The notes under the pieces: generated by a model
Seen by the model: only the letters and a program-made list of their open reading frames with translations
What the model was told of the DNA's origin: nothing
The model's database searches: none
Part shown: one piece after another, positions 5,081 through 40,640 of the stretch
How the letters are laid out: every line of letters starts with the position of its first letter
How positions within the stretch are numbered: the first letter of the stretch is position 1
Origin: Nemertoderma westbladi
Taxonomy: Eukaryota; Animalia; Xenacoelomorpha
DNA length: 64,000 nucleotides
Assembly: GCA_032718475.1 (NCBI GenBank)
Contig: JAUCBJ010007822.1
Coordinates: 180,382 to 244,381 of the forward strand
Direction of reading: 5' to 3'
Position numbers and translations under genes: made by a program

Positions 5081-6308
5081 TGTAAAAGCTTTTGCTGAAT
5101 TGCCCGGTTATTTTTCCTTATTTTTCCCGTAAAATACTCTGTAGTTGGTTTAATAGGCGTAAGAGGCCGTATTATTGCTGTATCGGTGTTTTTAGAGGAT
5201 CTAAGAGCTATTTCTTCCGTATGTGTACTGTGGAAGGCATAGTTGATGATTCTATGGCAATTCCTTGACGCAAAAGGGGCTAGATACTCTTGAACAGTAG
5301 TTACTATGACGACGGTTAACAGCTGATATTCATACGTGTCGATTTTCTTTGTTCTACGGCATCTCTTAGTTCAGTCAACCAATCAGAGCGTTTTTACGGC
5401 TCTTGTGCAGAAATTTCCGAGAAATCACGCAATGCTTTATGGGCAGTGTTATCATTCTGTCCTGAGCCAGGAAGAACGGCTTTGGAATATTTTGTGCTGT
5501 TCTGCTTTTAGCCTAACACTAGTAGGCTTAATTATAAGGACATATATCCGTTATCATAACACACTGTGCAACTCAATACTTACCTACTAACCTAACTCAA
5601 CTGGGCAATGCATATATCTTGTTGTACATACTTTTATATTGTTATACTGCTATTTACTGTCGATTATTCATTATATGGTGATGAAATATTATATTGGAAT
5701 AACGAGAAATAACCCCGAAACCCCAATATTCTTGATATACCGAAGGTAAGAGAGAAAGGTTACATATAACGATTGTGACTTATGTTAAAGTGGTTTGAAG
5801 TGAATCTAATGTTATTTGATAGACCCTACATGAGTCGGTCCGTGTTCCTTTTATATGTGACTAAAATCAGTGAAGATCGGCAGATCAGTGTGCAGTATTG
5901 TGCAGCATTGTGTATGAGTGAGACTGATAACGAAGCATTTCCTAAAGAATGCGCCATATATGTGAATTGTAACTAAGCCATATCGTTGCGTGTAGTTTAA
6001 GTCATAGCTCTGTTTATATAGATAGAGCGCCACGTCCAAAAGGAACTGTTAATATTCCCCGAAGGTGAATAATATTGTCAGAGATTATATAATACTGTCA
6101 GTCGAATAATACATTAGGCTTACATAGCAATACGATTAAGCTGTCGAAATCAATCTCCCGGGTATATCCAACGGGTGAATGATCGCGCACAGATTGGTTT
6201 CAACTAGTGTAGTGAATCAAATACTTGTCAGAGGCTAAAAGCGATTTATTATCTAGAAGACATCCTAATTTGGCGGGTTAAACTGCCAAAGGTCTGAAAG
6301 CGCGAACA
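5081..6308 (+). repeat. A1 5' LTR (1228 bp)
   Basis: tgtaaaagc...gcgcgaaca; near-identical to 15927-16537 plus 45366-45982. Confidence 0.95.
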
Positions 6309-6319
6309 ATAACGGATAT
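6309..6319 (+). promoter_or_regulatory. A1 PBS position (ATAACGGATAT), complementary to LTR 5544-5554
   Basis: Immediately follows the LTR; no TGG; exact 11-nt reverse complement inside the LTR. Confidence 0.75.
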
Positions 6320-6596
6320 TGCTTCTGTATTGCAATAGGCAATAAAGCTGAAGTACCGGCAACCGGTACCCAGTAGGCCTGACTACCTAACCACCCGGAC
6401 CGGTACATACAGCAGTACAGGTACAGCAGTATTATTCGATTTTGATAATTATATACCGGTAGGCCTTAATAATTAATCAGGGACTGCAGCCCTGGTTTTT
6501 TATTGAGATTTTTACTTATTTCTGTCAAGTTTTATTTGTTTGAAGGCCAGTATTGAACAGAAGGCGTGTAAGCCTGATCAGATTGTACAGACAATT

Positions 6597-7150
6597 TGTA
6601 GGCTGAGCTGTTGTCTGATTGCTGTTAAGTCTGAACGGATTGCAGTGTGTGTAGATCACCTGTCCGATAAAGAACGGTTAGGAAGTAGGGGCAGCGAATG
6701 CTGTAAGGTAAACCCCCAATTAAAGAATAAGTCGTACTACTGGGTTAGAACGCATACTACCTAATTATTTCGGAGTCTGCATGTCCTGTAGTTTATTTAG
6801 GCTTGAGAGTAGTCTGCCATCGTTTAGTCTGTACTTTGTTTGTGTAAGTCTGCACGGGTAGCGTATAATTTTATTTAGATAATTTGTAGGCTGGATAGTT
6901 GTCTGGCTGTTGTTGGGTCTGAACGGATTGCAGCGTGTGTAGATCACTTGTCCGATAAAGAACGGTTAGGAAGTAGGGGCAGCGAATGCTGTAAGGTAAA
7001 CCCCCAATTAAAGAATAAGTCGTACTACTGGGCTAGAACGCATACTACCTAATTATTTCGGAGTCTGCATATACCGTAGTTTGTTTAGGCTTGATAGTAG
7101 TCTGTCAGTGTTCGGTCTGCATTTTGTTTGAGTAGTTTGTACGCGTAGCG
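6597..7150 (+). repeat. ~289-bp tandem duplication in the A1 leader (also in A2 at ~39740-40300)
   Basis: gtccgataaagaacggttaggaagtaggggcagcgaatgc... occurs at ~6662 and ~6949. Confidence 0.85.
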
Positions 7151-8472
7151 TAATATTTATTATTCAGAGTTTATGTGATTATTCGCAACATTCATTCCCC
7201 AAGTTTGTTCCTACAGTAATTGTGTTTGTTATACATGCCGTTATAGTTAAACTAACCCCGGTACTACACGGGCTGCTTGGCGTAGGTAAAGACTGGTGAT
7301 TTTGTGCACCGGTCACTCCAGCAGATGCCGTGGTTCTTTTAGCTGTTCAAGTATATTTAACTACTGATTATCTGTTGTACAAGTACTCGTACCTAATTTA
7401 GGGTTTAGTGTACAGTGCTTTCCGAAGGTAATTAGTGTGTAGGCATTATATTTGTGTTGTAAAGTGGTTGATAGGCACGTTCGATTAGCTCTATTAACTT
7501 CTAGGTAGGAACACTCCGTGATACATAACGTAGTACCTATAGTGATACGGCTATAGGTCGTCAGGCGGTGGTATTTTCCTATCTGGACAACGCAGTGTAT
7601 TTACTACTACTTATTATTTTCAAATACCGTAGTACCCTGTCCGTTGTAATAACCAGATTCTAACCCTTTGTCAGGCTGGTTTGTAGACTTCTTGTAAAAT
7701 TACCCTAAAAATTCGTATTTTGTGTTTTTTGTAAATTTTTGTGTTTATTTAGAGATTGTAATCTCAACCCGAATCGTAAGTAATTTGTAGATAAGTAACT
7801 TAGAAAGTAGAATTATTTGTTTTAGTGTCCTATAAGTAGCACTTCACTGAAAGCGCACCACTTTGTGTAGTGATTACTCCCCAGAAATAATAACATTTAT
7901 TTCAAATACTGACAAAACCCATTAAACGGGTATATATATATATTATAAATCAAATCTAACGATTTATAAATAGTAGGCCTGCCATACAACAATTAGGTCT
8001 CAATATCAGTTGGACTACTGCTTCAATAACGGTAAAAAGTAAGTCAAAGTAACCAAGTAACCCTTAAAATTCAGAAATTCAATTATTTAAATAATTGACA
8101 TACTGGTATTTACGATAGGCCTATTATATATATATAAATTTAGGCTGAAATTATACCGGTACTCTGTAATTAATTCTAGTCCAGAATTATACTTATATAT
8201 ACTATAAGTGTAGGCTGTATACCGGTATTCCCGATAGGCCTATTATATATTTCTATATTTGTGCTAAAATTATACCGGTATTCTGTGATAAACCTAGTCT
8301 GTAATAATACTTATATATACTATAAGCATACCGGTATTCTAATATTATATATATATCACGCTACACTGAGTAGCAGTATCGGTAATTAATTACTAGGCTA
8401 GCCGTTAATGCTGAATTACTAGACTTGCTTAGACTGTAATATAGCAGTAGGCATTGAACTGTACAATCAAAC

Positions 8473-11400
8473 ATGTCTGACTCACAACAAACATTGTCAG
8501 ATAGTCTTTTAGAGGGTGTTAGAATGAGTATTAGACTTAGACAGCGTCTTAAAAGGATCTGTGACCAAGATCAAAGTATGGAACATCCCAGACCAAAGTC
8601 TAAGTCCCCTCCTACTGTGCGAAAGATCATCCCTCAAGTAGTAGTATCAGACCCTAGGCTAGTCCAACATCGTAGGTCTATCATAGGCACTCGAGCTCAG
8701 GTCAAGCGGGACCAAGAAGCAGCGGAACCTCAACAACCCGCGAGCCAAGAACTTACTTCTCAACAGCCCGATAGCTCCAGTAGTTCGGATACTGTTGAGC
8801 GGACGCCCGAACGCGGAGCGAAGATGGCGGATAAGGTTTATGATGAGCGGCCAACCTATGAAGAATCAACCGACGCCACTTCTTCCCAAGAAGAAAGCGA
8901 AGTGACAGCAGAGAAACCGCATAAGAGGGATGCTATTGACATCTATCTGTCAGACTATCAACGCTTTGTAGGAGATGAAGAGTTGAGGAGAAGGCTGGAG
9001 GGGCTTAGCCCTAATGGTGAAGGAACCAAGCTTGTGCTGGACGCAATCGATGCGGAACCAAGCTAAATTTGATGAACTCCTCCGCATCACTAAGGTTCAA
9101 GAAGAACAAGTAAAGAAAAAACGTATAGAAGATAGAAAGACAGCAGCAGCGGCAGTGGCAGCGGCAGAAGCGGATAGAAAAGCGGCAGCGGCAGAAGCAA
9201 AAGCGGCAGCTGCAGCAGTAGAAGCAGAAAGAAAAATAGCAGTGGCAGAAGCAGAACGGAGGGCATCTGAAGAGACAACCCAACTTGAGTTGGAAAATCT
9301 TCAAGAGAAGCAAGACAACTTCAGTAAACAGTTAACAGCTAGTAATATGCAGATGATGAATCGATCTACTCCCAAAAGACAAGGTTATACATCATCTGAG
9401 GAAGGCGATACCACCGATACTGAAGGCAAAGGAAATGGATCTCGTCTAAGCAGACGTAGAAGAACATCCCACCGTCAGAAATTGCCTGATTTGCCTCCAG
9501 CTGTTAGAAGGCAACTAAATAACACCAACTTAGGTAGTACAGAACCCACAGACCAAATAATTAAAATAGAAAGACTCCCTACTATAGTAGATGAGCCTGA
9601 AATAATTAGGCCTGTTCTTGAAATCACCCCTTCGGTGATAGACACACCTGTGCTCCCTGAAGCTACCTCTAAATTCCCTCTGCACAGCACTAAGCTACCT
9701 GTGCCCAGCAGAACAGCCCATGAGACAGTTCATGCCCTGGACTCCGAGCGAAATATTCATGATTTATCGCCCGTTGTCCCTCGTCCGCCCGCTACAACGT
9801 TGGCGACTCCCGCTTCGGCGGTCGAATGGGTGGACGAGGGACGGCGGGGGATGGATCTCCTGCTCGGGCAGATGCAGGAGACTGTTCAGCAATTCAAAGG
9901 CACAGTAAGGGAAAGTAGGTTAGAGTTGCAAAAGGTGCAGCAAAGTATCGCGTTAGAACGCGATAAATTAGTGAACACACAAAAGGGTATACCACCACCC
10001 CCTGTAACAATGTGTCAACCCGTTAGGTCTGAAGTATCCCATGCGCAAGGTGTGGAGCCTACACGCATCTATACTGCTAGCGAAGTAGAAACTCCTATAG
10101 TAAACCCTATTAAGGGTAATTATAAACCTGTTGATAATGATATCTCATCTAGACTTGATAATAATCCGAGAAACTTATATACCGATAATTCTCTATTCAA
10201 TAATACAATGGCCCAAGAAAGTTTTACACGTCAAATGGCTAGAACCGAAGCCCGGCAAGCGGTAAAGGTGGGAGAGATCGTCAAGTTTAATGGAGATGAG
10301 ATGAAATGGTTACCTTTTAATGAATATTACAAAGATAACATTCAGAACTCTGTACTATCCAACGGAGAGAAACTTAGATTTCTCATCGAGTGCTTGGAAG
10401 GACCTCCCAAGTCAATGGCGTTAAAATTTATTGGACATCCAGATGGATTAAGACAAGTTTGGGATACACTAAACATCAGGTATGGTAATAGGACTAACAT
10501 AGCTAGGTATTTATATGCGAAATTAATGGCGCCCCGAAAGTTTCTTAGCAGCGGGATTATAGAGTTTTCCGATGAGATTCAGGAGATCTGTAGACAACTA
10601 GATTGGTTAGGTAAGTCTCATGAATACCAGAATTCTATGGTTGTAGGAGCCTTAGCATCTACTTTACCAAAGGGTGGAGTAGGTACACGCTGGGACAAGA
10701 AGGTGTTATATATGATGGAACAGCAACAACGAGACCCTACCATGGCTGATCTCATGTCATTCCTAGATGGAGAAGTGAAATTACAGCTCCTAAAACAGTC
10801 TAGAGAGAAGACACCGGAAAGTAAGGTAAGTGAGAAACCCGTTTCTAGGAGAAGGGTAACACCAGTATGTTATACCGACGACGGTGAAAGCCAAACCTCT
10901 CAAGGAGAGGACAGCGGGAAAGACACTGACAGGTCTTATTATGTCAATAAAATGCCTAAAGATCAGGTAAGTAAATCCAAGTCTCGACCCAATGACAGAA
11001 GGGAACCGGTACAAAAAACCCCTCCTATGTCTCCTAAAAGAATTCAGGTGAGAAAGCCCGAGGAAAGAACAAGTGTGCACCACATAGCACAGGTTAAAGT
11101 AAGTAACATCAAGCCGAAATGTGTGCTGTGCGACGGGCCCCACCGTTTGAATGTGTGTGATGAATTCCTGAGGAAATCACTCGAGGATAGACGTGAAGTC
11201 ATGTGGGATAAGCGGTTGTGTTATAATTGCCTCAGACGAGGACACCAACGGCGAACCTGTTACTCCGACGCAAGGTGTGCAAAGTGCGGCGCAAAACATC
11301 ATATCTTGTTGCACACGGAATTCGAACGAAACAGCCCGAGTCAGGTAAGTGAGTCTGAACTACATGTCCAATTCAGTGATGTGAACGACACTGATCAATC

Positions 11401-12859
11401 TGAGATGGAAGGATTCTATACGGACGAATTCTCCGACCAAAACGAATCCTGTTACCTAATAAACACCACCGCAGTGTATCGAGCACTCGTGCATGAGAAA
11501 GACACAGACAGCGACCTTACCTTAACTACTTCTGATCAACAACCATCTTGGAAAGCGCCAACTTCCAATATAGGAATCCGAGAATTTCCTGTAGTCCAGT
11601 TACGGGTCCACGGACCTCAGAAGAGCTATATAGTGAACGCCCTCCTGGACTCCGGTAGCACAGGAACATTCATCGATAAAGAACTAGCCGAAGTCATCTT
11701 TGCTGGACAACCCAAGTTCCGAACCAAGCTAAACATGTCAGGGATCATGCAGGTTTGGAATTCTACTGTAGCTGCCGACTATTATATAGGTGAGTTGTCC
11801 ACTCCACAGGATAAACTAGGAGAATACAGTATAAGGTCAGTAAAAATGGTGGCAATAAAGAACTTCGCTACCACCCAAGTGGAACCTTATAATTGGGACG
11901 AAGATGATCATGTCCAACAACTTAACATCCCTAGATTCGACACCGATTATCCTGGAGTACAAATATTAATCGGTCAAAACGCGCATGAGGCGCTGGAGAC
12001 ATTAGAGAAACGACCTACTCAACCGCAACCACTTCAGACCTATGCGGTAAGAACTAGAGTAGGTTGGTACCTTACTGGACCTTCCCGAAGAACGCTCAGA
12101 GAAAGACTGCTTCAAGATCGCGTCTGCCAGGTGAGTGAATGGGAAGATGATACTAGTGAGGGAGACGACCCAACTGAGGGAACACCACACTCCTCAGATA
12201 ATGACAATCTTAACTCCAATGTAGATCAATGGAGATATTGCCCCAAGACGATGAATATAGCCGACATCGCTTCCAGAGGAGCAACTCCTCAAGAACTGAC
12301 AGATACTCCAGACCGGCTAGGTGAACCCGACTTCCTGAGTAAGGAGGATGAATGGCCTCCCCATCTTACTCCGACTGAGATTAGACCAGCCAAGGGAGCG
12401 GAGAAAGTCAAACCTAAAACCCGGACGGGTGGATCGGAGTTATTTGAACCCGGGATAGATCTGTCGGTATTACATATTGCCAGGGACGACGCCGTGGATC
12501 TGGACCTCCCCACCGCGAGTGGATCCTTCATGAAGATCAGAGGGAGCGATTGGAGCTCTGGAACATCAGACGTCTCGCAGGGACTCTTACCTCTCCTGCA
12601 GGGAGCGACGGACCACTATAGCTCCTGGAATCGGCTTTGTAACGCCGTCATATACTTTGAGCGATGTTTCTATCGTCACTATTCCAGGACGAAGAGGAAA
12701 CCTGGAATTGTATTCGGGATGCAGCGACTCAATCACCCAGTCGGTCGTTTGTGTTTACCGGAAGGGAATGGAGGACTCTCCGGAAACTGTGGAAGGCAAG
12801 ATTCTCTTCCCACGACCACCTCCCTAATCCTTCAAACATCTAGAGACTCCATAACGTAA
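8473..12859 (+). pseudogene. A1 Gag-protease polyprotein with internally deleted pol; frameshift at ~9056
   Basis: KFNGDEMKW..F (BEL Gag), three Cys/His knuckles (CVLC..H..C, CYNC..GH..C, CAKC..HH..LH), LLDSGS protease, RNase H tail WRYCP..NIADIASRG, integrase tail HPVGRLCL. No RT YxDD. A 14-nt deletion relative to A2 shifts the frame. Confidence 0.88.
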
Positions 12860-14520
12860 CAACATATGGAGTGGGTGTGTGACTCTATTATTTTATATTA
12901 TTTTATTATTTTTATATTTCTGTATGTATTACTATGTAATTTTATTATAATCGTTTTCTTTAATTTTTATTTAAGTAGAATGTTATTTAGCGATTATTTA
13001 GTAGATTAGTGCAATATATTAGTGTTAATTACGTGCGTAATTACTTATAATATATGTAGAGCGACGGCAAGAAATAATTCTTTTTTTTCTTTCCTTACTG
13101 TCCGTATCATATTATAAATACGTGACTACAGTAAGATGAAATGTCCGTACTTATTAAAGTACAATAAAGCCACTACTATATTCAAGTATTATTGGTAGGC
13201 AGAGTATTAGGAATGCAAAGTTCAGATCCTCGTGTCTCGGCTAAACCAAGCTCTGGGTAGACCTTGGAAACGACTTGCCTCTTCACACTGACATTGCTTC
13301 GTGCGATATTGCTCTCATACCGTATATTAAATAATACATATAGTAGCGTGATGTCCCTTTAACAGTAGCGTATAATGCAAAATAAATCTGTTAAACCCTT
13401 TGACCATCTGTAATTCTAGTCGATTAAGATATCGCGGCACCCACCAATATACTTGAAAGACAAATTCTTGAATCAGTGGTTAACGTCCCCAGACAAGTTC
13501 TGGAATAAATCGGTGCCCATCTCAAATATTAATTATTTAATATTTGCAAATCTAATAAATCAAAATCTGTAAAATTCAGATCCTTCAACAATTCTAGTCA
13601 ATTAAGATATCGTAGCATTTACCGATATTCTTAAAAAGACAATTTTCATAGAATTAAGGATCTTGTGTCCCCAGACATGTTCTAGAATCAAAATATGTCA
13701 ATTTAATTATCAAATAATAAAATTTCAGGGAATAAATTTAAATTCATGCCTTTTAATGAATTTAATAAATTGCCATTTTTACGCAATTTATAACATTCCC
13801 AAAATTCCATTAATTAATAGATCAAGGGAGCGGAGATTTATCTTATTATGCGTATGAGTGTGCGCAAGTCTCCCAAACATAGTCAATAGCCGATAAAATT
13901 CATAAAGCCATGTATAAAACAGGACATTGACCATTAAAGAATTACTATTAAATAACATCCCAGATCTGTATGCATTGGAATTACCCTAATTCTACCGCTA
14001 GCTTTACATAATGTCACCATAGCAACAACCACGCTAGAATTAGAATTGAGTTAAAAGAACAATAGAAAGCTTGTCCCATTGAATAGCATAGGGAATAAAT
14101 AGCGCACTGCTAGTATCCAAGGATACATAATAATACAGTGACATTCTGGAAGGCACTGACTAACGGACAAGTGACCCGAGTGTGTGTAATTTGTGACAAG
14201 TTGTGTGTGTGGTATTTGTGAGTTTATAGGCGAATGTTACTACTAAGGTGTGTTTACAGTAGCGAGTCGCAATTGTGAAAGTAACCCTAACTCTCCAGTA
14301 AGAACCTGAGGTGTATCTAAGCCTTTGGGACGGACAGTTGAGTGACTTGTGCCGGTTGTCGTAGTCGTTGTGCGGCTACGTCGTTGGCGAAAGTACGGCG
14401 GCGACGACACATCGGCGCTGAGGATCTCGCACTGTCCGGGGGCTGATTGGGGTAGGCAGCGACGCTCGCTAGCCTAAATATAAACTCATTATAATATTAA
14501 TAAACTCATATATAGCAGAT

Positions 14521-15918
14521 ATGACGGAGTTGATAGAAGATGGTCTTGGTATCAGGGAGCGATATACTCTACTTTCAAGCGTTTGTTGATAGCTTGATAC
14601 GCGGTGATACTAGTCCAACTACTACGAAGGATGATGGTCGTTATATCGAACCTACGATTTCCTGGAAGTAACTTACGCGTGAATTGGACTATGGAAAATT
14701 CACCGCTCGCTACATGCATTGTAATGGCATGTATATGGACTTCTTAACCATTGGCCATTCTATCGATTTACACGATACGGACTATGTCGAACATATCCTA
14801 CCCAGAGGAGTCGAAACGATAAACCAAAATTCTAATGCGAAAATCCTATTCGAAATCGACTCGAAAGAAAAGACATTAAAGAAACAAATAAACGCGGTAA
14901 CTCCAACATATATTTGGAATTCTTGATAGAAGCATTGTAACAACAAATAAATATCATCCGCGTTTCCCCTACCAGACGTGCGTCTTTGGTATTATTACGA
15001 TAAATGCCCTAGACCCAGCCAATAAACGGAAAGACATAAACATCCACGGAAACGTTGTGTTAAACACAGTTGTGCTCGTTATATTTACTGGAGTTTCGAG
15101 CGAAACTTGTTTGACGTATCACCTATGCTCACTCGGCTCGAACGATCCTGGAGTAAACCTACGATCAGAGTCCCGGAATACTCGGTCAAACCTCCTCATT
15201 TCTTAGTTGGACCTCAGACCTGCGATCCTGGTGGTGTCGCGGATCCTCGCGGACTGTATTCACTGTTCAAAGATCTAGTGCTACCCTAACAATTATTCGG
15301 TAACACTCCGACAGTGATTTCTAGCTAGCCGCCCATCTTACCTAGCCGGATTGTGACGCGGACACCTAATATCACTATCCAACCGTATGGTCGTCCCCGT
15401 TTAACGCGATACAACCCTTCATCAAGGTGAAGGAGAGCGTTGTACGAAACGAGTTAAACGCTATTCTATAAAGATCAAAAAAGAAACCTGCGTTTGTTCA
15501 GATAAACGTAAGTTATAACAGTAAGTCCAATCGATAAACGAATTGGCCTTATCTCAGTTCGATTGGGAAATCTCGAAATCTAAGAAGATATCAAGCTTAG
15601 AAAACCCTATTCTCTGCGAGAGTTTTGGACGAACGTATCCCATGACAAGCGGAGGAAAATCAGCTCGAGGAGAAGCATATCGAAATGGACGAGACACCGA
15701 CCGTAAACCCAAACCTTCTAATGCAATTGTATTGCACCCTTTACCCAGGAGTTATAGCCTTTCTAGTAAAGTGGCTCGCCCCAAAGAGAAAAGGACTCTT
15801 GCTGGCCTCGGGAAACTGCGTGAACGCCGTCCGCGCAAGAAAAACTAACTGTTTAGAGTATCTTTATGTTTTAGAAACTGTGACTTTTATATTTTATAGA
15901 CTGAAAATCCCATTTTCT
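14521..15918 (+). pseudogene. A-family 3' accessory ORF of unknown function, disrupted
   Basis: Begins MTELIED; homologous to ORF pieces of A2 (30927-32256) and C (47433-48985). Confidence 0.55.
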
Positions 15919-15926
15919 GGGAGCGG
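15913..15926 (+). promoter_or_regulatory. A1 PPT-like site (ttttctgggagcgg)
   Basis: Directly precedes the 3' LTR; same in A2 and C; B has ttttcatggagcgg. Confidence 0.7.
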
Positions 15927-16537
15927 TGTAAAAGCTTTTGCTGAATTGCCCGGTTATTTTTCCTTATTTTTCCCGTAAAATACTCTGTAGTTGGTTTAAT
16001 AGGCGTAAGAGGCCGTATTATTGCTGTATCGGTGTTTTTAGAGGATCTAAGAGCTATTTCTTCCGTATGTGTACTGTGGAAGGCATAGTTGATGATTCTA
16101 TGGCAATTCCTTGACGCAAAAGGGGCTAGATACTCTTGAACAGTAGTTACTATGACGACGGTTAACAGCTGATATTCATACGTGTCGATTTTCTTTGTTC
16201 TACGGCATCTCTTAGTTCAGTCAACCTATCAGAGCGTTTTTACGGCTCTTGTACAGAAATTTCCGAGAAATCACGCAATGCTTTATGGGCAGTGTTATCA
16301 TTCTGTCCTGAGCCAGGAAGAACGGCTTTGGAATATTTTGTGCTGTTCTGCTTTTAGCCTAACACTAGTAGGCTTAATTATAAGGACATATATCCGTTAT
16401 CATAACACACTGTGCAACTCAATACTTACCTACTAACCTAACTCAACTGGGCAATGCATATATCTTGTTGTACATACTTTTATATTGTTATACTGCTATT
16501 TACTGTCGATTATTCATTATATGGTGATGAAATATTA
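15927..16537 (+). repeat. A1 3' LTR, left part (interrupted by B)
   Basis: Matches 5081-5691. Confidence 0.95.
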
Positions 16538-18439
16538 TATAGAATTATATTCCCTAAATGCCGTGGATTTTCAAAATTTTATTTTTATTCGAATTAACTT
16601 TGCTAAAAGATTACTTTGAGTCCTCATTTGTATTTGTTCTATCATTTGTACGCCTATTGGTTAAGTGGTTCAGTAGCTCAGTCGGTAGAGCGTTGGAAAT
16701 TATATGTGTAGTAGGTATTGAGTTCGAATCCTAGTAAGTGCGAATTATTTTTTGTGCAGAATTTCAACTCATTTAAATTGACCGCTACAAATTAAATTGC
16801 ATTTGTCTGTACCAATGAGACTGTGGTTATTTGATTGTAACCAATGTCGTGCGAGTTATATATTTGCTGGACCAATAACTATCTTTAAAAACCTGTTAGA
16901 ACCTATAGAACAATCGAGAATTTTCTCGATTGATTGCAGCACAAATTTGCTATATAAAGGTGCGATTTGTTCATTAGTTATTCTATCGTATATTCAATTG
17001 CTGATCTATCTTAACTTTCTGTCTTATTTCAGATTACATTGTTTGTTGTATAATAATTATTATTTGATTTTGTAATAAAAGTTAGAAATACTAGTCACAT
17101 CTGCCCTTTTCCTATCTGTTTTACTATGCTTCACCACGGTGAACCCAGCTAAGGGACAGGATGGCCGGCTAGAGATCGGGCCGCAGCAATGAACGGGAAC
17201 ATCAGGGGAATGTAGACAAGAGACAACCCGCAATACCATCTTGAGTTATTCGCCCATCGCCTGAAAGGTTAGACAGCGTTCGACGCCTTGCTACCTAAGC
17301 GTAAGACCAAAGATCAAAAGGTAGAAGTAGTGACACGCTGTAAGCCTAAAATTACATCTTAGGGACTGTACTGTTTTAATTCAGGAAAAAACCGCAGTAG
17401 ACCTTCATATTCCTACGGGGGAGGAGGGAGAGAGCAGGCAGAGATACTAGTACGCAGATAGGACGTGGGCACACCGGTACGAAGCATACACATTGGTAGG
17501 GTGCAGCAAACTGTACGCCTAACTCTTGGTAAGTGCAGGTGCGTTTGCGACTATTTGTAGTACAACGGTGTCCATTGCATCAGAACTTGTAGGCTAGGAG
17601 GGTTGCTGTGTTTCACCTGAATTAGGATTGTACCGTTCAGGCGGTAGGGCAGTTTACGACTAGGCGCAAATAAATTGAGGCTATTAGGGATATACTAACA
17701 TCTACCGTGTCCCCGCCAACGTCCTGATAGGAAGTTACCCAGCCTACCTAGGTGACTAAAATTCTAGATAAGAGCCAGGATAGCTATTAGTAACTGTACG
17801 CCTACAGTAGTAAACTAACACATCTCTTCTTAGTATTAGGGACCTGGTACCTAAAATTGCCGAATTCTGGGTGTAGCATTAACTTTATGCCTGAATTTGA
17901 GTCCTGGAAATACGCAAGAGGGGAAGGAACCTTATTATTCGTGAGTATTGGACCTACAAGTTACAAAATTAGAATATTTGTAAAATGCACACCGTACCCA
18001 GTAATTATATATGTGAAGGAGCAAAACTGCTTTGACCATTCAGAATTAACACACACGCGTTAGAAATTATTTACACCTCAAAATATATAAAATTAACTTT
18101 TGTCCGTACTGTGCTTTTCCCGCTAGTTAGACATCTCTGCCTCTGTACCTAGCTAGCGTCCCTTTCGCCCAACCATATAAATCACACCGCGGTAAAGTAT
18201 ACGAGCCCCTTAGTCCGTCAGTGAGTCAGCCTGATTTTAGGATTCGCTGCGCGGGATTTTGTTTTATCGAAGTTTGTCTGCTCGTAGACTGTTTTCTGCC
18301 TCACCGGTTATAAGAGATCGATACTGCAATATATTCGCTTACTTAGAGTTTACTGTTTTGGTGAGAAGGTCGGATTTATGATTTGATTCACAGACTTTAC
18401 AGTAGGATATTGCAGGTATTGTTACTGTCTCTTCCAATA
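16538..18439 (+). repeat. B 5' LTR (1902 bp, TAT...ATA termini)
   Basis: Direct repeat of 43459-45360; boundaries fixed by the TSD and by divergence into the internal sequence. Confidence 0.93.
16665..16753 (+). ncRNA. tRNA-like Pol III cassette in the B LTR (copy at 43586-43674)
   Basis: A box tagctcagtcggtagagc, B box gagttcgaatcc, T6 run at 16748-16753. The acceptor stem does not pair, so it is not a canonical tRNA. Confidence 0.6.
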
Positions 18440-18450
18440 GTAGGAATATG
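18440..18450 (+). promoter_or_regulatory. B PBS position (GTAGGAATATG), complementary to LTR 17406-17416
   Basis: Immediately follows the LTR; its reverse complement catattcctac is in the LTR. Confidence 0.75.
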
Positions 18451-19030
18451 TTTTACTGAACTACGGTTCGGTAGGACTAAAGTTATTTGAAAATTTTGTA
18501 TTTTGAGGTAAAAGTTTACATTTGATTAGCTAAGTGCTAATATTTTGAAATAAAATTTGATTTAAACCGCGTGTAAAATATTTTGGATTTGAATACCGGT
18601 GTTTAAAAGGGTTTAAATACCATATTGTACCGGTACAAAATTTTCGTAAAAGTAAAACCTAACTCTTTTGTTTTTCAGGATTCAGAACTCATTTCTAGAC
18701 TGTAACGGGAGCAAGACCGTGTTTAGCAAGTTTGGGAGATAGATAACTCAACAACTTTGGTTGGGAAAATCGCGCTTCGTCCGCAACGCTGAAAACGGAA
18801 AGGTTCACGTCCGGTTTGTATCTGGGAATCTGTTTTTCTGGAGAATTATTGGAGTGGGTGAGTTCGAAAAGTTGCATAAATAAGTTAGGCATTACCGTAT
18901 TAGTTAAAATTATTGTGGGTTCCACTGTCTCAAGTATTTATGCATTCCGTATGATTTCTTTGTTCATTGCTGAATTAGTCCGTATTATTGTATTTAATTT
19001 ACCTTTTGATAACGCATATCGTTATCCGAT

Positions 19031-19163: not shown

Positions 19164-19247
19164 ATGACTGTAATTAGTACCGTTTAGATATAAATACGGT
19201 AAACTCGATACTTTGACACTCACTTTACTTGACTTACAACTACCGAA

Positions 19248-22200
19248 ATGAGTGACAAACAAGACTATACGAAAAATACACCTACCGACTATGACTCGTG
19301 TGACGCGGATAAGTCAGCAGCGGAAGAACAACAGGGGAAGACTCGCGAGCCTACCGAACCTACACCGTGCGCGTCACCAGTACATCCAACGGGAGTACCG
19401 GATGCCGTAGTACGAGGTGACGGCAGGACCGAGGACTTTCTAACTGTTCCGCAACCTAGATACAGGGAAACGGACATGGTAAGTTCAGCAGGAAGCCAGG
19501 AGAGCGTGGTTAGAAGCGTCGGCGGATACATGGCGCATATTACCAGGAGTATTGGAGAAGGCCAATGCATATTAGACGAGTTGACCGCTCCGATGTCTCG
19601 GTTTGAGTTCTACACCCTCCAGGTTAGAGTACAAAGTAGAGTACATAAGTCCGTAGATAACCTTATCAGTCTACAAGATCTAGCTAGACAGAGACAGGAT
19701 ATGGATACTCAACTTAGAATCCTCGAGAAACTAATGATCGCTAGAGAGAAACTGATTCAGTTTAAGTCGACGATTAGGCAGATACAACAGGAACAAGCGG
19801 ACCAGTTGTTAGGTGAGTCAGTTTCGGACGAATTATTGCAACCCGAGGAAGAACAGGAACTGTATAGGCTGGATGGACAATTGAAACACCTGACGGATCA
19901 CTTACGCATGTGCGGCGAGGACGTCGGAGATTGGGAAACCGTGCCGGAGGCTACGAGGGAAACTTCACTCGCACAAATCGAACCGGCACCGGGAACACTA
20001 GATCAATCACTGGTGAGTATTCGCAGCGAAATTGGCGAGGTGAGTATGGCTACGTCAGAAATTGCTCGACAACAGCAGCTCTACAGACAACAACAGGAGA
20101 TGGAGGAACAAACTCAATTGCTAATGGCACAAGCAGCAGCAGAAGAAGAGAAACTACGCGTTGCGAATGTTGCGAGAATCTCTCATCTGCAAGAACAAGC
20201 TGAGTTGGAAGTAGCCGAAATGGAAAGGTTAGAGTTGGACATTGCACAACAAGCGGCAGCGGCCGAGTTAGCGCAACAAACGGCAGCGGCCGAGTTAGAG
20301 CGACAAGCGGCAGCGGCAGCGGCAGCGTCCGAGTTAGAGCGACAAAGGTTAGCTTCAGAAGCGAGAACCGAAATGAAAAAACGGCAAATAAAGGCTCAAT
20401 CAGCTATACGACAAGCGGAGTTCGAGGCGCAACAACAACAAACGGAACAACGCGAGAAAGAAGTTAAACTTCGTTTCGAACTCGAGAAGAAGGCGAGAGA
20501 ATTAGCCAACGCCAAGGAAGACCTGGATCTACAAGCCCGCGATCGATCGATGAGATCTCGAGACGGACATGATTTAGACCAGATGGAGGTAAGGCACCGC
20601 CAAATCCAGGAACGAATGAAGGAAGGTTCGATAGGAGCACCTGGACGGGAACGACAATTAGTTAAAGACTTATGTCAAAGATTCCCTCAAGTAACTCCTA
20701 TGTTTGCACCAGTTACGACTAAGGAACCTGTTTCGATTGCGGGTAGTAGTAACATTTCTCCTATCCGTGGTGCGACGGAACACAGGTTTGTTATTCCGGA
20801 CAAGTTTACACCGCCAAGAGCAACGTCGTCGCCTATTCCGAAAGTCAAGGTAAGTAACCCACCGACTACCGATCGTAGTAGTTTATTGACCGGACCTGCA
20901 CTACTAACGACAAAACAGGTGAGTCCACCTTTGACACCTAAACCGGTTACGCACTACGAATACCCAATGACGTTTCGGCCTACAAGGCCAGTTGATTCAA
21001 AAGCGGTTACTCGACCACCGGTTCAGTTTACATCGCAATCTACGACTTCGAGGAAGACTTGTGAGCCTACCGAACAACGGAGACCAGTGGATACGCGACC
21101 GTTTAACCAGTTTACATCGCAATCTACGACTTCAAGGAAGACTTGTGAGCCTACCGAACAACGGAGATCAGTGGACGATGTTCCGAAACGAAACGTTAGA
21201 ATTCGTACGACGCAACGGACGCGAGCACGTCGACCACCATATCCAGATGATAGTAGTACTTCGAGCGAATCGGATTACCCGAAACGCGAGGTATTTAGAA
21301 CAGGGGCGGCCGATGAATATAAACGCGAGCGTTCAGACAACTCCTTTGTAGACAATCCTCCACAAAATACACCAACACAGAAGGCGTTACAACCAACGGA
21401 CGCAATCAGTACACAACAATTCGCCGACATTGTCAACAAGTTGGCCCGGATTGAGGAACGTCTGGAGGAAGTTCAAACCGATAGTTCGAGGAACACTGAA
21501 TTCGAACACAATAGACACCCGAAGGAACCACAAAGACCGGTACCTTCAAAAAACACATCGTATCAGGGAAAAGTGCCAAGAAGGGACATCAACCAGATTA
21601 CCAACCAAGGACGCGAAACTCTGAACGTTGCCGAGGAAATAGCGAAATTCGCAGCTAGACAAGGACTACCGGTGCAACAACCACCTAAGTTTTCAGGTAG
21701 CTCAAAACACTGGCACACTTTCGTAGACTATATCGAATCTCAGATCGCCGTGTGCGCCTTTACATCACGGGAGAAGTTTAATTACCTGCTTCAAACGTTG
21801 TCAGGAGAACCTACACGTTTGGCAGAGACCTTCGTCGGTGTACCGGACGCCTCTGAACTAGCGTACGATCGTTTGACTTCGATCTACGGAGGTACAGTCA
21901 GTATGGCCAGGTCAGTGATAGAGGAACTCTGTAAGGGAGGGGCTATTACTAAACCCGTCGACTTGTTAAAACTAGCTGACGAATTAAAGAACGCTATTAC
22001 TACTTTGAGATCCATTGGACAACTTGACTACGGGAATACCCCTACAGTCCTATTAAAGATCATAGGACGACTCCACCATCGACTTCGTCGGGAGTGGAGA
22101 AAGATCGAATACCAGCGGGAAGAGCGGGGTGGATTCTTAAAACTGGAAGATGTGTACCTTTTGATATCCAGGGAAGCAGTAGTAGAAACTCGATCCAACT

Positions 22201-25200
22201 ACACTGACCAGCACATCGTAGCAGAAGGGATCACCTTGCCATCCTCCAACCGACAAAAACCCCAGACAACATCCACCAAGACGGCCACTTACGCCACATC
22301 GACGGAAACCCGACAATTCTCGGACGGTAGTAGGGTATCTGCGCCCATTGGGATAAAACAGACTCGACAGCAACTCAGTACAGACTTCAGCGGCTGCCAA
22401 TACTGCGAGCATTTAGGCAAGCGGTATATCGGTCACAAGTTGAGAGGTTGTCGACAGTTTCGCGAGTTAAACTCGGAAGAACGACGGCTGCAGATACGGC
22501 CATTGGACTCTTGTTGGCGGTGTACGCGACACGGACACGTGCGCAAAGATTGCCCAAATACCGACACTTGTCCATCCTGTGGACGCAACCACGACGGTCT
22601 GCTCCACACAGACAGCCACACGCCGACAAAACGCTTCGCCAGGGAACACCCGGAAGCAGCAGCGAAATGTAACACCGCGTACAAAAATCGAGAATCGAAA
22701 ACGACTCCAACCTTCGTGACCCATATTAAGGATTGCTTCTCAGAACAATCCGGATCGTCGGACGAAGAGTCAGAAGACGACGACGTATATTCGGATGGAG
22801 ATGAACAGCCATCGATCGCGCTTCTGACTACTGACCAACTAAAGGGATTCAGTGTAATTCCGATTAAGATTACTGGCACAAAGGGGAGTAAGAGAATCTA
22901 CGCTATTCTAGATTCAGCCTCATCTCACAGCTACGTGGATGAAAAGATAGCTGATGTAGTGACGGATCTCAGACAAGGTAAGCGCGTCAGTTATACCGTA
23001 AGTAGTATGCACGGACAACATGCAATACCAGTGACACGAGTTAAGTTGAACTTAGACACTCTTCTTCCGAAATCGCAACACAGCGAAAAGGAGAGGTCTT
23101 TGTTACCCTTTAAGGATTTGACTTTTGCGGCCACCAAGGACTTTAGTAACCTACTAGGTCCTGTCCCAGAACAATCCTTGGAGGACCGTAAGTATTTCAG
23201 ACACCTTGGTGTACCTGAATGTCCTGTCAATTACAGATCAGTAGCAATGCTGATCGGGACAGACCAATTCAACCTACATCAAGTGTGGGAAACCAGACCA
23301 TCGGCAGTCGTAGCGGGAAACGCATACGCATGTAGAACGCCGATAGGGTGGTATACTCGAGCGCCTGTGCGCACACTAGACATAAGTGACGAGGAAGATG
23401 TACAAAGTACATGTAGTTTATTAACTACAAATTCAATTCATTCCTTTTCACACGACGTGGACCATACTACCTTACATACAAAACATGACAGACGTGTAAC
23501 TAGTATGATAAGTCACAAGGAGCAGCTAATCCACCAGGTGAGTTTAGAACTTGGGGAGAAGACGAGTCAACCAGAGATTCCATCGACGACGGATGATAAC
23601 GCCGGAAGGCTTGCGAGTCTACCTACCCCAATAACCTCAACAATGCCCGTCGATATCGATGACGACGCGTTAAGAAACCATCAAGTGGAACAAGCTGCAC
23701 TGGACAAAGAATTAACGGAGAAGACTATCAGGTGGTTAGAACAAGATACAGCCGAACCTGGTAGCTACGAACCATGTATGTCAGAACAGGAGAAACAATC
23801 TCTGAAGATCATGGAAGATACTATCCGCCAGACGAAAGACGGACATTATGAGGTAGGGATGTTATGGCGTAGCCAAAGTCCTAAACTCATAAATAACTAC
23901 CCGTTAGCGTTAAGACGTCTGCACTCAATACGACAACGTCTATTAAAGGACGAGAAAGCCCATCTGCAGTATAACACTCAGATGGAGACGTATTTGACCA
24001 AGGGATACGCTATCCGAATGACTAACCCAGAGCGAGTGACTGACCAGACGTACTACTTGCCACATCACTTTGTGAGACACCCCGACAAACCAGACAAAGT
24101 ACGTGTAGTCAATGACTGTGCGGCTCTGTTCGAGGGAATGTCCCTCAATAGTGAGTTAATGGATGGACCAAACATGAATAATTATCTTATGGGGGTGATT
24201 ATGCGCTTCCGTCAGCGTCAAGTAGCTTTTACTTGCGACGTTGAAGCGATGTTTCACCAAGTGAGAGCGTTAGAGCGAGACAGAGACAGTTTGCGGTTCC
24301 TCTGGTACCCGGAAGGAGACTTAAGTCTACCACCGGCGACTTACCAAATGCAAGTTCGCGTTTTCGGTGCCAGGGACAGCCCAAACTGTACGATGTACGC
24401 CCTAAAGCAAGCCGCTAGGGATCAGAAACATTTATATGACCCAGAGATAATTAAGATTGTGGAACGTGACTTTTACGTCGACGACGGCTTACAGAGTTGC
24501 GACACAGTAGAACGTGCTACAACAGTAGCACATCAATTACGGGACTGCTTAGCGGGCGGAGGTTTTAACCTCACCAAAATCGCCTCAAACAGTGCCGAAT
24601 TAGTAGACTCATTCGGAACGACTGAGCGTGGAGGTGGTGACATAGACCTAGAGTTCGAACCACTACCGACGACCAAGGTGTTGGGGCTCTTTTGGGACCC
24701 AAACACGGACAACTTTCGAGTGAAAGTGAGACTAGACAGTCAAGAAAACACACTGACAAAGAGATCATGCTTGTCAAAATTGAGCCGATTGTTCGATCCA
24801 TTAGGATTCATCAGTCCAATAATACTGCAAGCCCGCATTTATATGCGCAGTATCTGGAAGGATGGACTGACATGGGACGAGCCGATCTCATCAGACCAAG
24901 TGGACTTATGGAAAACCTGGGAGGCGGAATTATCTTCGCTAGAGGATTATTCCATACCCAGAGTCTACTTTCCATTACAAACAACATTCCCTGACAACTT
25001 GGAATTACATTGTTTTTCCGACGCTAGTGACAACGGCTTTGGTGTGGCAGCGTACTTGCGCAGACAAGTAGACTCAGAAGAATTCGATGTCTCGCTCATT
25101 ACTTCTAAGGCAAAAACAATGCCTACTAAGTACATGACGACACCACGAGCTGAGCTACAAGCCGCAACCCTGTCAACCACAATCGTGAACCTTATACAGA

Positions 25201-27937
25201 CAGAACTACAGTCAAGTTTACAGATATTTTATTGGACTGACGCGACGTTGGTTTTATTTTACATAAACAACGACACACTTGAATTCAAGACATTCGTAGC
25301 TAACCGTCGCGCAGAAATTCTAGACCGTTCAATAAAAGAGGATTGGCGACATTGTCCCGGACCACAAAACCCAGCCGATATTGCGTCGCGAGGAATGATG
25401 CCTGAGGAATTCTGTAAATCGGAAAACAAAGAATTTTGGCAACACGGACCCCAATTCTTGCAGAAATCGACACAAGATTGGCCACCGTTATATGACAACA
25501 AGTCTAACACCATCCCTAAGGACGCCGAAATCAAGAAACCAAAAAAGGGGAAGGCAAAGAAAAGGACGGCGGTCAAACTTAAGAAAAAACCGAAGGCGAA
25601 ATGGAAGGATATAACTTCAAAGGTCAAGAGAGGAAGACTTGCGAGCCTTTCTACACCAGACATATCGCCAGACGGTCAACCAGACGGTCAACCAGACACG
25701 TTACTAAACAGCCAACCAGACATTTTGCCAGACATATCACAAAATGTTTCACCGGACATTAGTAATGTATTGACTAACAGTAAAGCCGCAGTTTCCCTAT
25801 TGGAGCGGCCTTCTATTGACAAACAACCAGATACGTTACCAGACGTATCACCAGACACGTTACTAGACGGTCAACCAGACGTTTTGCCAGACACGTCACT
25901 AAATATTTCGCCGGATGTTCCGCGAAACATTTTTCCAGACATGTCACAAAATGTTCTACCAGACACTAGTAACATATTGACAAACAGTAAAGCCGCAGTT
26001 TCCCTATTGGAGCGGCCTTGTATTGACAAACTACCAATTTTGACACACTTGAGCAACCATAAGCACGGTGAAATCTCATGTATTACAGATGTGGGTAGTA
26101 CCTACGTAAATGTAAATACAGGTGTTACTTTGCGCTCAAGAGACATACCAAACTTGCAACCTATGGTGAGACCTGGGATTAATATCGGCAGAAAAATAAG
26201 TTTACCGAAACCCACTGACCCCATAGAGTTCAAACCACCATTAACGATCGACTTACAAAGTACTGACAATCAAGGTAAGAAGACGAAGAAGGACAAATTA
26301 CTTGTAGACCCGGACGGATCAACAGTCAACAAGGGAATACTTACCGGCGGACCCGTGGGCCCTTCTAGTAAATCAAAACCTTCCAAGTTCTCCATTGACT
26401 TACCTGATGACGTCACAAATACTCACGTCGACCGTATTGTAAACTTAACATATTCTTGGACAAACGCGTGCCGAAAATTAGCGTGGATTGTACGTTTTGT
26501 ACAATACGTTAAAGGCAAACGCGACTTTACGCGTCGACTTACATTGACTGAGATTGACAGAGGTGTGAGATTAAATTAATTCGCCATTACCAACTGCGAT
26601 ATTTCGCACGCGAATTCACATCTATAAGTCAAGGTCAACCAATCAAGTCGTCACCAATACTGAGTTGGAGTCCGATTATTTATAATGGCTTAATTTGTCA
26701 TAAATCTCGGCTTCAAAACATTGACTTTAACACAAACTTTAGGTACCCAATAATAATACCGCAACACCACGAACTACAACGTGCAATGATACTGGACGCA
26801 CATTTACATCTGAAACACGCTGGAAGACACCACTGTCTTTCCTACTTACGTACAAGATTTGTATTAATTAGACCCAGTAAAGCATTAAGTTCAGTGACAC
26901 GTACGTGTATTATTTGTAAAAAGGTACATTCTAGAATAGGTACCCAAGAAATGAGTGAACTTCTACAAGCACGACTTCAAGCATTCAGACCACCTTTTAC
27001 AGAGACTGGAATTGATTGCTTTGGTCCCATACATACGAAACGTGGACGTATACTAGTAAAACGCTGGGGACTGATTTTCACATGTATGTCCAGTAGGGCA
27101 GTTCATATCGAACGTGTGATGGATCTTTCCACCAACGCGTTTATACTAGCATTGCGGCGATTTATCGCTAGACGCGGACTAGTGAAATGCTTGTACTCAG
27201 ACCAAGGGACAAACTTTGTTGGTGCTCGAAATAAGATTGCTAGAGCCTTTAAGAAATTAGATCATGATCAAATCTCGAACGAACTACAACCTCACAAGAT
27301 TGTTTGGAAGTTTAATCCTCCAGATAGTCCATGGAGAGGCGGAGTCTGGGAGAGATTGATTAGATCTATAAAGACAGCCATGGCAAAGGTCATTCCAGTA
27401 AACCACATATTGACAGACGACCAACTGACTACATTGTTTGTTGAAATCGAGGCAATACTAAATACTAGACCAATAGTATTAGTACCCGATGACAAACAAT
27501 CCCAGTTTGCTTTAACACCGGCACACCTGCTTATGCAGGCACCGACCACATTAATGCCTATTTCAATTCCAACAGAAAGCGACAGCTACGGTAGAAAAGC
27601 GTGGAAAATCACGCAACTACTAGCTAACAAATTCTGGGAAATATGGCAAAACCATTATTTGCCCTCTATTTCTGCCAGAACAACTTGGTACAATAACACC
27701 CGCGCATTAAAGCCGGGAGATCACGTGCTGTTAGCAGAGGTGAATCTAAAAAGACGCTTCTGGATAACAGGTGTAATTTTAGCCACACATCCATCTATGG
27801 ATGGAGTGACAAGAACTGTGACGGTACGGACAATTGACGGTCGTACAGTAGACAGACCGACTCAACGTCTCGTACTTCTTGAAGAGACTCGTAACGAGTC
27901 TGGAGACTACAAATCTCCAACAAATGTTAGTAAATAA
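19248..27937 (+). CDS. B Gag-Pol polyprotein (Gag, aspartic protease, RT, RNase H, integrase); one frameshift near 26575
   Basis: PPKFSGSSKHW, CCHC knuckles, ILDSAS, YYLPHH..KVRVVND, FYVDD, LHCFSDAS, PRAELQAA, NPADIASRG. Integrase HHCC, GIDCFGP, SDQGTNF and GGVWERLIRS are in ORF 26786-27937. Confidence 0.93.
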
Positions 27938-30849: not shown

Positions 30850-30926
30850 CCGCTCCCAGAAAATGGGATTTAAGTCTATAAAATATAACAAATCACAGTT
30901 TCTAAAATATAAAGATACTCTAAACA

Positions 30927-40480: not shown

Positions 40481-40640
40481 GAAGTACCGGTTAGGACAGT
40501 TGGGCCTACTGACCTACAGAAGTACCGGTTCTGGCAGTTGGGCCTACTGACCTACAGAAGTACCGGTTCTGGCAGTTGGGCCTACTAACCTACAGAAGTA
40601 CCGGTTCTGGCAGTTGGGCCTACTGACCTACAGAAGTACC
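40481..40640. repeat. 38-bp tandem repeat, ~4 copies, in the A2 leader
   Basis: gaagtaccggttctggcagttgggcctactgacctaca repeated head to tail; not expanded in A1. Confidence 0.9.

Follow-up and report, generated by a model that had tools for sequence, protein, structure and literature searches.

How do LTR retrotransposons of the BEL/Pao superfamily begin reverse transcription when their primer-binding sites (PBSs) do not resemble tRNA complements? The question is raised by the window analysed here, a 64,000-nucleotide stretch of Nemertoderma westbladi DNA in which three elements, A1, A2 and B, lie nested in one another; A1 and A2 belong to one family, so that two families are present in all. 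The ICTV profile of the Belpaoviridae describes an 18-nt PBS for tRNA-Arg or tRNA-Gly and LTRs of 0.2-1.2 kb, and it calls BEL/Pao replication poorly understood, with tRNA priming assumed (PMC8742986). We lean, at somewhat better than even confidence, toward the reading that A and B are BEL/Pao retrotransposons likely primed by their own RNA, probably after a cut by the element's own RNase H just behind an LTR 11-mer as in the yeast element Tf1, and that in most relatives this primer would be spliced together.

Primer-binding sites and LTRs of families A and B

The LTR ends were set independently via target-site duplications (TSDs), at 5081-6308 for A1, 41970-40713 (reverse strand) for A2 and 16538-18439 for B. 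The window contains the following features.

5081..6308, forward: A1 5' LTR, 1,228 bp, TGT..ACA ends; TSD ATTAT at 5076-5080 and 45983-45987
5504..5523, forward: upstream arm of a second long-range LTR helix in A1; pairs with 6203-6210 and 6232-6242
5544..5554, forward: A1 predicted self-primer 11-mer, LTR position 464-474; second copy at 16390-16400 in the 3' LTR
6203..6242, forward: downstream arm of the second A1 helix
6309..6319, forward: A1 PBS
8987..12859, forward: A1 gag-protease ORF, with DUF1759, ending in an RNase H C-terminal fragment
15919..16537, forward: A1 polypurine tract (15919-15926) and first part of the 3' LTR; LTR remainder at 45361-45982
16538..18439, forward: B 5' LTR, 1,902 bp, TAT..ATA ends, TSD TATTA; 99.5% identical to the 3' LTR
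16812..16958, forward: B predicted promoter, motif-based only, with three CCAAT boxes and a TATA box at 16951
17268..18678, forward: B predicted GT..AG intron, 1,411 nt, with an acceptor motif; joint in one contig of run X4, with 23 letters on its short side
17406..17416, forward: B predicted self-primer 11-mer, LTR position 869-879; further predicted pairing from about 17390-17399
18440..18450, forward: B PBS
19233..26579, forward: B gag-protease-RT-RNase H ORF, with DUF1759 and Peptidase_A17
26558..27937, forward: B integrase ORF, with H2C2 and DUF5641, in another frame and overlapping the end of the pol ORF
43452..45360, forward: B polypurine tract (43452-43458) and 3' LTR
29592..41970, reverse: element A2, inserted in B; LTRs 41970-40713 and 30849-29592, TSD ACTGT
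41452..41463, reverse: A2 predicted self-primer, 12 nt
40701..40712, reverse: A2 PBS, 12 nt

The assignment of B to the BEL/Pao (Belpaoviridae) protein family holds: Pao-type gag and pol domains occur in the order PR-RT-RH-IN, the domain matches are DUF1759, Peptidase_A17 (E 2e-42), Integrase_H2C2 and DUF5641, and the best protein matches are Pao-type polyproteins at 37-44%. The ORF at 19233-26579 carries YVDD and four RNase H acidic motifs, which we take to have their established roles. LTRs, a polypurine tract and a TSD, the structural traits of BEL/Pao, are also present, the B termini being TAT..ATA and not TG..CA. The A copies contain DUF1759 and the protease region only; an RT core and integrase were looked for in A1 and in A2 and were found in neither, so A1, as read from its sequence, is non-autonomous. 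Its 3' LTR is interrupted by B. A host L24-like ORF was also noted, and a homolog search with it returned no match at E 1e-20. An Rfam search of the window returned one weak match only (RT-19, E 0.18) and no ribozyme or tRNA, and ARAGORN found no tRNA genes there; on these results we set aside the idea of a self-cleaving ribozyme from a known family.

In each of the three elements the PBS abuts the 5' LTR at offset 0, with no spacer, and is the exact reverse complement of a segment of that LTR: 6309-6319 of 5544-5554 in A1 (11 nt), 40701-40712 of 41452-41463 in A2 (12 nt) and 18440-18450 of 17406-17416 in B (11 nt), where 17395-17399 (cagta) is in addition the reverse complement of 18454-18458 (tactg). 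The register is that of a primer, with the 3' base of the 11-mer opposite the first PBS base in A and B. None of the three PBSs in the window starts with TGG, and no alignment was found between the LTRs of A and B. These coordinates and absences coincide with those of the initial annotation, whose chance estimate of about 1e-3 per family also agrees with our shuffles: dinucleotide-shuffled LTRs contained the 11-mer in 13 of 20,000 cases for A and 11 of 20,000 for B, or about 6e-4 each. For comparison, 2 of 9,587 internal 11-mers in A and 8 of 11,121 in B have a complement in their own LTR. The annotation had further read the A and B matches as co-variation of PBS and LTR 11-mer between families; because the LTRs cannot be aligned, they stand as two independent matches and not as co-variation at homologous sites.

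A diverged copy, A3, was the subject of a primer-site prediction fixed beforehand.

46163..47354, reverse: 3' LTR of A3, about 72% identical to A1, with a differing 11-mer at 46931-46921

The prediction was borne out only in part, with two of the five expected PBS changes present (6314 G>A and 6316 A>T); the 5' LTR and PBS of A3 were searched for in the window and not found. Inside the 11-nt PBS no other variants are listed; the listing ties neither change to an LTR 11-mer, and position 6314 falls in a CpG.

Split primer sequences in related elements

The survey of related elements covered 91 loci, of which only the 21 with an LTR end fixed by a direct repeat form the main set; L011, L013 and L037 were tried first and then moved to a blind set, L083 was added later, and in L046 the repeat stops at the contig end. 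A self-match of 10-15 nt occurs in 16 of the 21 with strict GTRAG donors and in 18 with relaxed donors (15 spliced, 3 contiguous), compared with 6 (strict) and 7 (relaxed) of 1,197 downstream control windows and none of 21 reversed PBSs. The three relatives without a match reach 9, 10 and 10 nt with one mismatch at a junction, and swapped PBS/LTR pairs reach 13-14 nt in a few cases when any GT-AG pair is allowed. The form that predominates was missed in the initial annotation: in 15 of 21 relatives the PBS complement lies across a GT-AG junction within the LTR, whereas in A and B it is contiguous. A splice-junction primer was also sought in A and B with any GT-AG pair, and none was better than the contiguous match. 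No matching element has its duplex begin more than 5 nt from the LTR end (range 0-5 nt), and the polarity is in each case the one that a primer requires. An RT alignment that took in 18 of the 21 relatives resolves 14 clusters with 42-76% identity between them. Position, register and the many differing PBSs that each match their own LTR thus strongly support, at the level of sequence, the earlier proposal that these elements supply their own primer.

A blind search of further loci recovered a self-match in 21 of 45, and in 0 of 45 for each of two controls, under limits (offset to 5, intron to 1,200) that, like the relaxed donors, were chosen after data were seen; a first version had given 18 of 46, with 3 and 4 control matches. 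Many of the blind matches come from the same families as the 21, and many of the misses probably have no 5' LTR. Among viral contigs, 37 pattern matches were obtained, none of them a relative.

Two loci with RTs 99% identical indicate how the split and contiguous forms are connected. In L080 a 536-nt intron splits the 11-mer, and the 3' LTR of L078 has the exact joined form, so that, judging from these sequences, one family contains both the intron-bearing and the exactly joined primer. In L083 both LTRs are identical and hold the primer uninterrupted, and the intron-less form has therefore been copied. The last two bases of the primer are AC in B and in 12 of 13 spliced models, and AT in A. 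A poly(A) signal lies 20-104 nt 3' of the acceptor in 10 of 13 spliced relatives. Folding of the spliced models gave values below 0.35 in 4 of 13, and the enclosed loops measure about 100-220 nt in the relatives versus 740-1,020 nt in A and B.

A proposed priming route and its alternatives

We propose that transcription begins upstream of the 11-mer, which would then fold onto the PBS; a cut behind the 11-mer (predicted at 5554|5555 in A1 and 17416|17417 in B) would release a 3'-OH, from which minus-strand DNA would copy U5 back to the cut and then transfer to the 3' LTR copy. This transfer would require a poly(A) site downstream of the cut; in B that would have to be the AATAAA at 17669 rather than that at 17074. 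The primer of most relatives would be assembled by splicing from the end of exon 1 and 3-9 nt of exon 2; the LTR intron would survive by being recopied from an unspliced 3' LTR copy, and where that copy is also spliced a contiguous primer would result. Family A, with no RT or integrase found here, would be copied in trans.

The 11-mer is probably located inside the RNA and not at its 5' end. Transcription of B probably starts upstream of it, as suggested by the TATA box at 16951, the three CCAAT boxes and, as weak evidence, the contig joint 17267-18679. For family A the indications diverge: in folding, the A1 primer/PBS helix scores 0.95 for an RNA that begins with the 11-mer and 0.00 for RNAs extended by 40 or 100 nt at the 5' end, which favors the 11-mer as the start, and extra upstream pairing favors an earlier start. 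The B PBS is predicted to form, alternatively, a local hairpin with U5. If used, the predicted B intron would take the self-primer, the LTR end and the PBS out of the gag-pol mRNA; a second B intron starting at 17529 was rejected, its donor being present only in the 5' LTR copy, where the sequencing runs, all of them contigs, read C. The cover of run X4 has a gap over the A PBS, to which we attach no weight.

A and B are probably intron-less descendants of split-primer elements, as their sequences suggest. The case for intron loss is made less secure by the position of B, which shares only 38-42% identity with the relatives and whose branch in the tree is long and weakly placed. We give about even chances to the broader proposition that a large BEL/Pao lineage builds its RT primer via the host spliceosome, an LTR intron splitting the primer so that only the spliced, cap-proximal copy primes, and that A and B have lost this intron, with B inverting the arrangement: one splice would remove primer, U5 and PBS, parting the mRNA from the replicating genome.

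The strongest competitor, which we nonetheless regard as unlikely, is self-priming in trans, in which a separate small LTR transcript (from a solo LTR, a 3' LTR or a 5' LTR whose transcript ends early, and spliced in the relatives) would be co-packaged, trimmed and used to prime genomic RNA that is neither cut nor spliced, much as if the element encoded its own replacement for a tRNA. Such a route accounts for introns kept in both LTRs with no need for splicing to depend on position, bypasses the long loops and the weak folding of A1 in cis, and fits the B AATAAA at 17074, upstream of the 11-mer, whose use would break strand transfer in cis. However, its primer would still have to end exactly 3-9 nt inside exon 2, when the poly(A) signals of 10 of 13 relatives come 20-104 nt later; spliced LTR RNA does itself get copied into DNA, as the joined LTR of L078 demonstrates; and the known precedent acts in cis (PMC7175516, available in part).

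Of the three primer sources named in the initial annotation (the RNA 5' end, the RNA 3' end or a processed LTR fragment), a processed internal piece fits best. Priming from the RNA 3' end, with a transcript that ends at the 3' LTR 11-mer, pairs with the PBS and closes a circle, appears improbable. The 11-mer does occur in both LTRs, and the family A LTR contains neither AATAAA nor ATTAAA. Against this, the 10 relatives mentioned have their poly(A) signals 3' of the primer, the AATAAA motifs of B fall about 340 nt upstream and 250 nt downstream of the 11-mer end, and a poly(A) tail would block extension from an RNA 3' end unless it is removed.

We attach similarly little probability to the possibility that the PBS/LTR helix is a structural or regulatory element (in packaging, export or a translation switch), with priming by something else. 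Long-range pairing unrelated to a primer does exist, since the second LTR helix of family A has a compensating loss in A2, where one base is missing from both arms, and PBS variants occur without an identified partner; but the position of the duplex near the LTR end and its polarity are those of a primer, and no other primer site was found. Least probable of all is a primer taken from the host, a tRNA fragment or another small RNA, the LTR match being secondary: the ICTV description of tRNA-Arg/Gly priming (PMC8742986), half-tRNA priming in copia (PMC6317226, available in part) and a TGG at the second base of the L079 PBS speak for it, but TGG occurs in none of the three window PBSs and in one of 21 relatives, and no fixed set of host RNAs explains many differing PBSs that each match their own splice junction.

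Relation to known self-priming elements

The closest mechanistic parallel is Tf1, which primes itself without tRNA after an RNase H cut between bases 11 and 12 (PMC7175516, PMC4600332 and PMC6317226, in the portions available). Like Tf1, Tf2, Tj1 and the Tf1/sushi group of Ty3/gypsy (Metaviridae), including plant and fungal Tcn1, as far as the available text describes them, A and B have, at the edge of the LTR, a PBS of about 11 nt that can pair with their own LTR RNA in priming polarity. They differ in superfamily, with Peptidase_A17, DUF1759 and DUF5641 in place of Ty3/gypsy chromovirus proteins; in a primer that is probably internal and not, as in the accessible accounts of Tf1, the first 11 nt of the transcript; in the splice junction spanned by the primer of the relatives; and in the 740-1,020-nt loops of A and B. 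Thus, from sequence and analogy, A and B likely work like Tf1 without being members of its group. The initial annotation pointed to Tf1 as precedent, but self-priming is not confined to Tf1/sushi: the part of PMC6317226 available also predicts it in the TAR lineage of Ty1/copia (TAR, Houba, Osr-1), by the same sequence test (at least 10 bp, starting 0-5 bp after the LTR). Those are plant copia elements, for which that portion describes no splice dependence.

Compared with canonical Belpaoviridae (BEL, Pao, Tas), A and B are alike in domain content and order, LTRs, polypurine tract and 5-bp TSD, and differ in having no tRNA-type PBS and, for B, in a 1.9-kb LTR with TAT..ATA ends. Self-priming in BEL/Pao was not found in our literature search; if true, it would place tRNA-independent priming in a third LTR superfamily, and so in all three. 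It would also be relevant to the suggestion that self-priming is older than tRNA priming (PMC3601003, seen in excerpt). A primer that exists only after splicing would tie reverse transcription to host RNA processing, making splicing a licensing step for retrotransposition, and might evade control by tRNA fragments. Such a primer would also explain why PBS finders fail on these elements.

For the Sinbad, Suzu and Sailor lineages of BEL/Pao, of which our tree contains no reference element, a term search of the available portions of PMC554778, PMC3118150, PMC6238403 and PMC8556966 found no PBS or tRNA statement. Mussel, clam, echinoderms, sea anemone, acorn worm and fish are the hosts of the named relatives, a range that resembles the one described for these lineages (PMC8220671, PMC6238403, both available in part).

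BEL/Pao insertions in the window and their PBS–LTR pairings

The window consists of nested LTR elements, including two copies of the BEL/Pao family A (A1 and A2), a separate BEL/Pao element (B), and a diverged family A copy without a 5' LTR (A3). Each of A1, A2, and B is flanked by a 5-bp target-site duplication (TSD), and because of these duplications the LTR ends were set independently of the primer question.

5081-45982, + strand: A1, with LTR ends and TSD; 3' LTR split by B
16538-45360, + strand: B, with LTR ends and TSD; inside the A1 3' LTR and itself interrupted by A2
41970-29592, - strand: A2, with LTR ends and TSD; inserted in B

The LTR pairs of all three are 99.5-99.8% identical, indicating young insertions. 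B codes for gag, protease, RT, and RNase H of Pao type, and its integrase lies in a separate frame. A1, A2, and A3 resemble B only in gag, in protease, and in a fragment of RNase H, and the family A copies are non-autonomous. Family A LTRs end in TGT..ACA, whereas those of B end in TAT..ATA rather than TG..CA (16538-16540 and 18437-18439; 43459 and 45360), with a clean 5-bp TSD; this difference in termini suggests that the autonomous partner on which A relies is probably some element other than B.

The pairings between PBS and LTR described in the initial annotation for A1 (6309-6319 with 5544-5554), A2 (40701-40712 with 41452-41463, 12 nt), and B (18440-18450 with 17406-17416, plus the additional pairing of 17395-17399 with 18454-18458) are all present in the sequence. 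The PBS starts at offset 0 from the LTR and its first base pairs with the 3' base of the 11-mer, which is the arrangement required of a primer. For A and B, the 11-mer occurs in 13/20000 and 11/20000 shuffled LTRs, and of the internal 11-mers, 2/9587 and 8/11121 are complementary to a site in the LTR of the same element. Since the LTRs of A cannot be aligned with those of B, these are two independent matches; the pairing is real and far beyond chance. Both matches are contiguous, and a search for GT-AG junction matches in A and B gave none better.

The PBS of A3-type copies was predicted from the A3 LTR, as five changes, before the contigs of the sequencing runs were inspected. Two variants were found there within the 11-nt A PBS, 6314 G>A (47, 23, and 35 contigs in X1, X2, and X3) and 6316 A>T (27, 14, and 22), and both belong to the five (~2% by chance, by hand calculation); the remaining three were not seen in contigs. 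The prediction was thus borne out only in part, and the two variants are candidates for changes that accompany the A3 form of the 11-mer.

LTR complements and introns in related elements

Relatives were found with an alignment of the B RT-RNase H and 20 homologs; the best 80 of the 536 metagenome loci listed and 11 loci from MAG contigs gave 91, and in 21 of these, the main set, the LTR end was set by a direct repeat. TGG lies near the LTR end in 1/21. A contiguous self-match search gave few matches; GT-AG introns lie in the LTRs of the relatives, and it is across the exon junction that the PBS finds its complement. With strict donors (GTRAG, with pyrimidine-rich acceptors), 16/21 show a 10-15 nt match (13 spliced, 3 contiguous), and with two further donor types, chosen from the data, 18/21 match over 10 or more. 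Most of these matches lie across a predicted splice junction. Controls scored 10 or more in 6/1197 (strict) and 7/1197 (relaxed) downstream windows and in 0/21 reversed PBSs. The three non-matching relatives score 9, 10, and 10 when one mismatch is allowed (null 12/1197); unrestricted GT-AG pairs give a looser null (55/1564), and some swapped pairs score 13-14 nt. Eighteen relatives with aligned RT fall into 14 clusters with between-cluster identity of 42-76%. A blind search of further loci, its limits tuned after a first version (18/46 loci; controls 3 and 4), matched 21/45, many from the same families as the main relatives, with two controls at 0/45 and 0/45.

In L080, a 536-nt intron divides the 11-mer. 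L078, an element with 99% RT identity to L080, holds the exact joined form in its 3' LTR; in the L078 5' LTR the acceptor is still visible. Such exact loss would be expected of a DNA copy of spliced RNA. Likewise, the two LTRs of L083 (320 bp each) are identical and hold the primer in contiguous form, and the intron is present in its relative L020. These two pairs show that LTRs without the intron arise from LTRs that have it and that they are still copied, and on such sequence comparisons we regard the LTR introns as real. DNA-level inversion as the origin of the relatives' PBSs is excluded, since the complementary junction occurs in RNA only. A and B may likewise descend from intron-bearing elements by intron loss, a step that is inferred rather than demonstrated, given that B is 38-42% identical to the relatives and sits on a long, weakly supported branch. 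The A/B element is part of a wider BEL/Pao lineage in which splicing appears to build the primer.

Further features were seen among these loci. The LTR of L084 (1561-3204; 1.6 kb) is predicted to contain an intron of 1021 nt, the junction of which is complementary to the PBS over 11 nt. In L036, L060, and L080, the same five letters follow each of two alternative acceptors in one LTR intron, so either acceptor would yield the same primer. The BEL/Pao elements L081-L091 lie within 11 bacterial-MAG contigs, likely through eukaryotic contamination.

Models of priming

Self-priming in some form is very likely, and we favor, as the probable mode, priming in cis as in Tf1 but with an internal primer. 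The primer would sit inside the RNA, RNase H would cut the duplex behind it in Tf1 fashion, and a poly(A) signal past the acceptor would leave a repeat behind the cut for strand transfer. Among the 13 spliced relatives, this signal lies 20-104 nt downstream of the acceptor in 10, nine models give the primer helix a predicted value of at least 0.59, and the primer 3' end is AC in 12. With RNA starts placed 11, 40, or 100 nt ahead of the primer end, the predicted folding of the primer helix gave 0.92, 0.93, and 0.59 for B, 0.95, 0.00, and 0.00 for A1, and 0.89, 0.67, and 0.00 for A2. A separate LTR-derived RNA acting as the primer is an unlikely alternative to this cis mode; priming by the RNA 3' end is improbable, as is a purely structural pairing with no priming role. 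A host RNA as primer is more doubtful still, and a fixed host RNA as the source of the relatives' PBSs is excluded by the many different junction-matching PBSs.

The favored cis mode would work like Tf1, yet in a BEL/Pao element outside the Tf1 group. In Tf1, RNase H cleaves the duplex behind base 11 (PMC7175516). Tf2, Tj1, and Tcn1 are, like Tf1, described as self-priming, and the copia TAR lineage is predicted to be so (PMC7175516, PMC4600332, PMC6317226). The ICTV gives tRNA priming for Belpaoviridae (PMC8742986). Searches by term in four BEL/Pao surveys returned no PBS/tRNA passages (PMC554778, PMC3118150, PMC6238403, PMC8556966), and searches of the open literature turned up no account of self-priming in BEL/Pao elements or of a primer that spans a splice junction; earlier mentions may exist in subscription journals, supplements, Repbase, or GyDB.

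Predicted promoter, candidate splice, and other features

B has a TATA box and three CCAAT boxes ~450 nt upstream of its 11-mer. One contig of run X4, whose DNA label was guessed, runs from 17267 straight into 18679, the borders being GT..AG and the acceptor textbook-like, with 23 letters on its shorter side; joints of this kind call for caution, and we take it as a weak hint of a B splice. If real, this splice would leave a gag-pol mRNA that lacks primer, U5, and PBS. In the B U3, 16669-16745 shows tRNA-like A-box and B-box motifs by eye, then a T run, with no call by ARAGORN or Rfam and a folding z of -0.7. At 18448, a variant in X1 and X2 (four contigs each) has nine PBS letters, six others, and then the LTR's last 12 letters again, possibly an aberrant reverse-transcription product recording the primer.

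The A LTR has another long-range helix (5504-5523 with 6203-6242), which crosses the primer helix in a pseudoknot-like manner; in A2 each arm is one base short, and A3 has a changed, weaker version. Between integrase and 3' LTR, B has extra ORFs flanking the A2 insertion: 28644-29591, in which three CCHC-like knuckles can be made out by eye (the Pfam zf-CCHC match, at E 0.017, falls below the cut-off), and 41952-42689, with no match in a Pfam search. A non-LTR retroelement ORF at 59980-63822 (1279 aa, Ulp1 protease and RT domains) is presumably NeSL/CRE-like. Amid the repeats lie a host-type ORF at 56547-57335 (+), mitochondrial L24-like (KOW, ribosomal_L24), and a host-type NifU_N exon at 467-982 (-).
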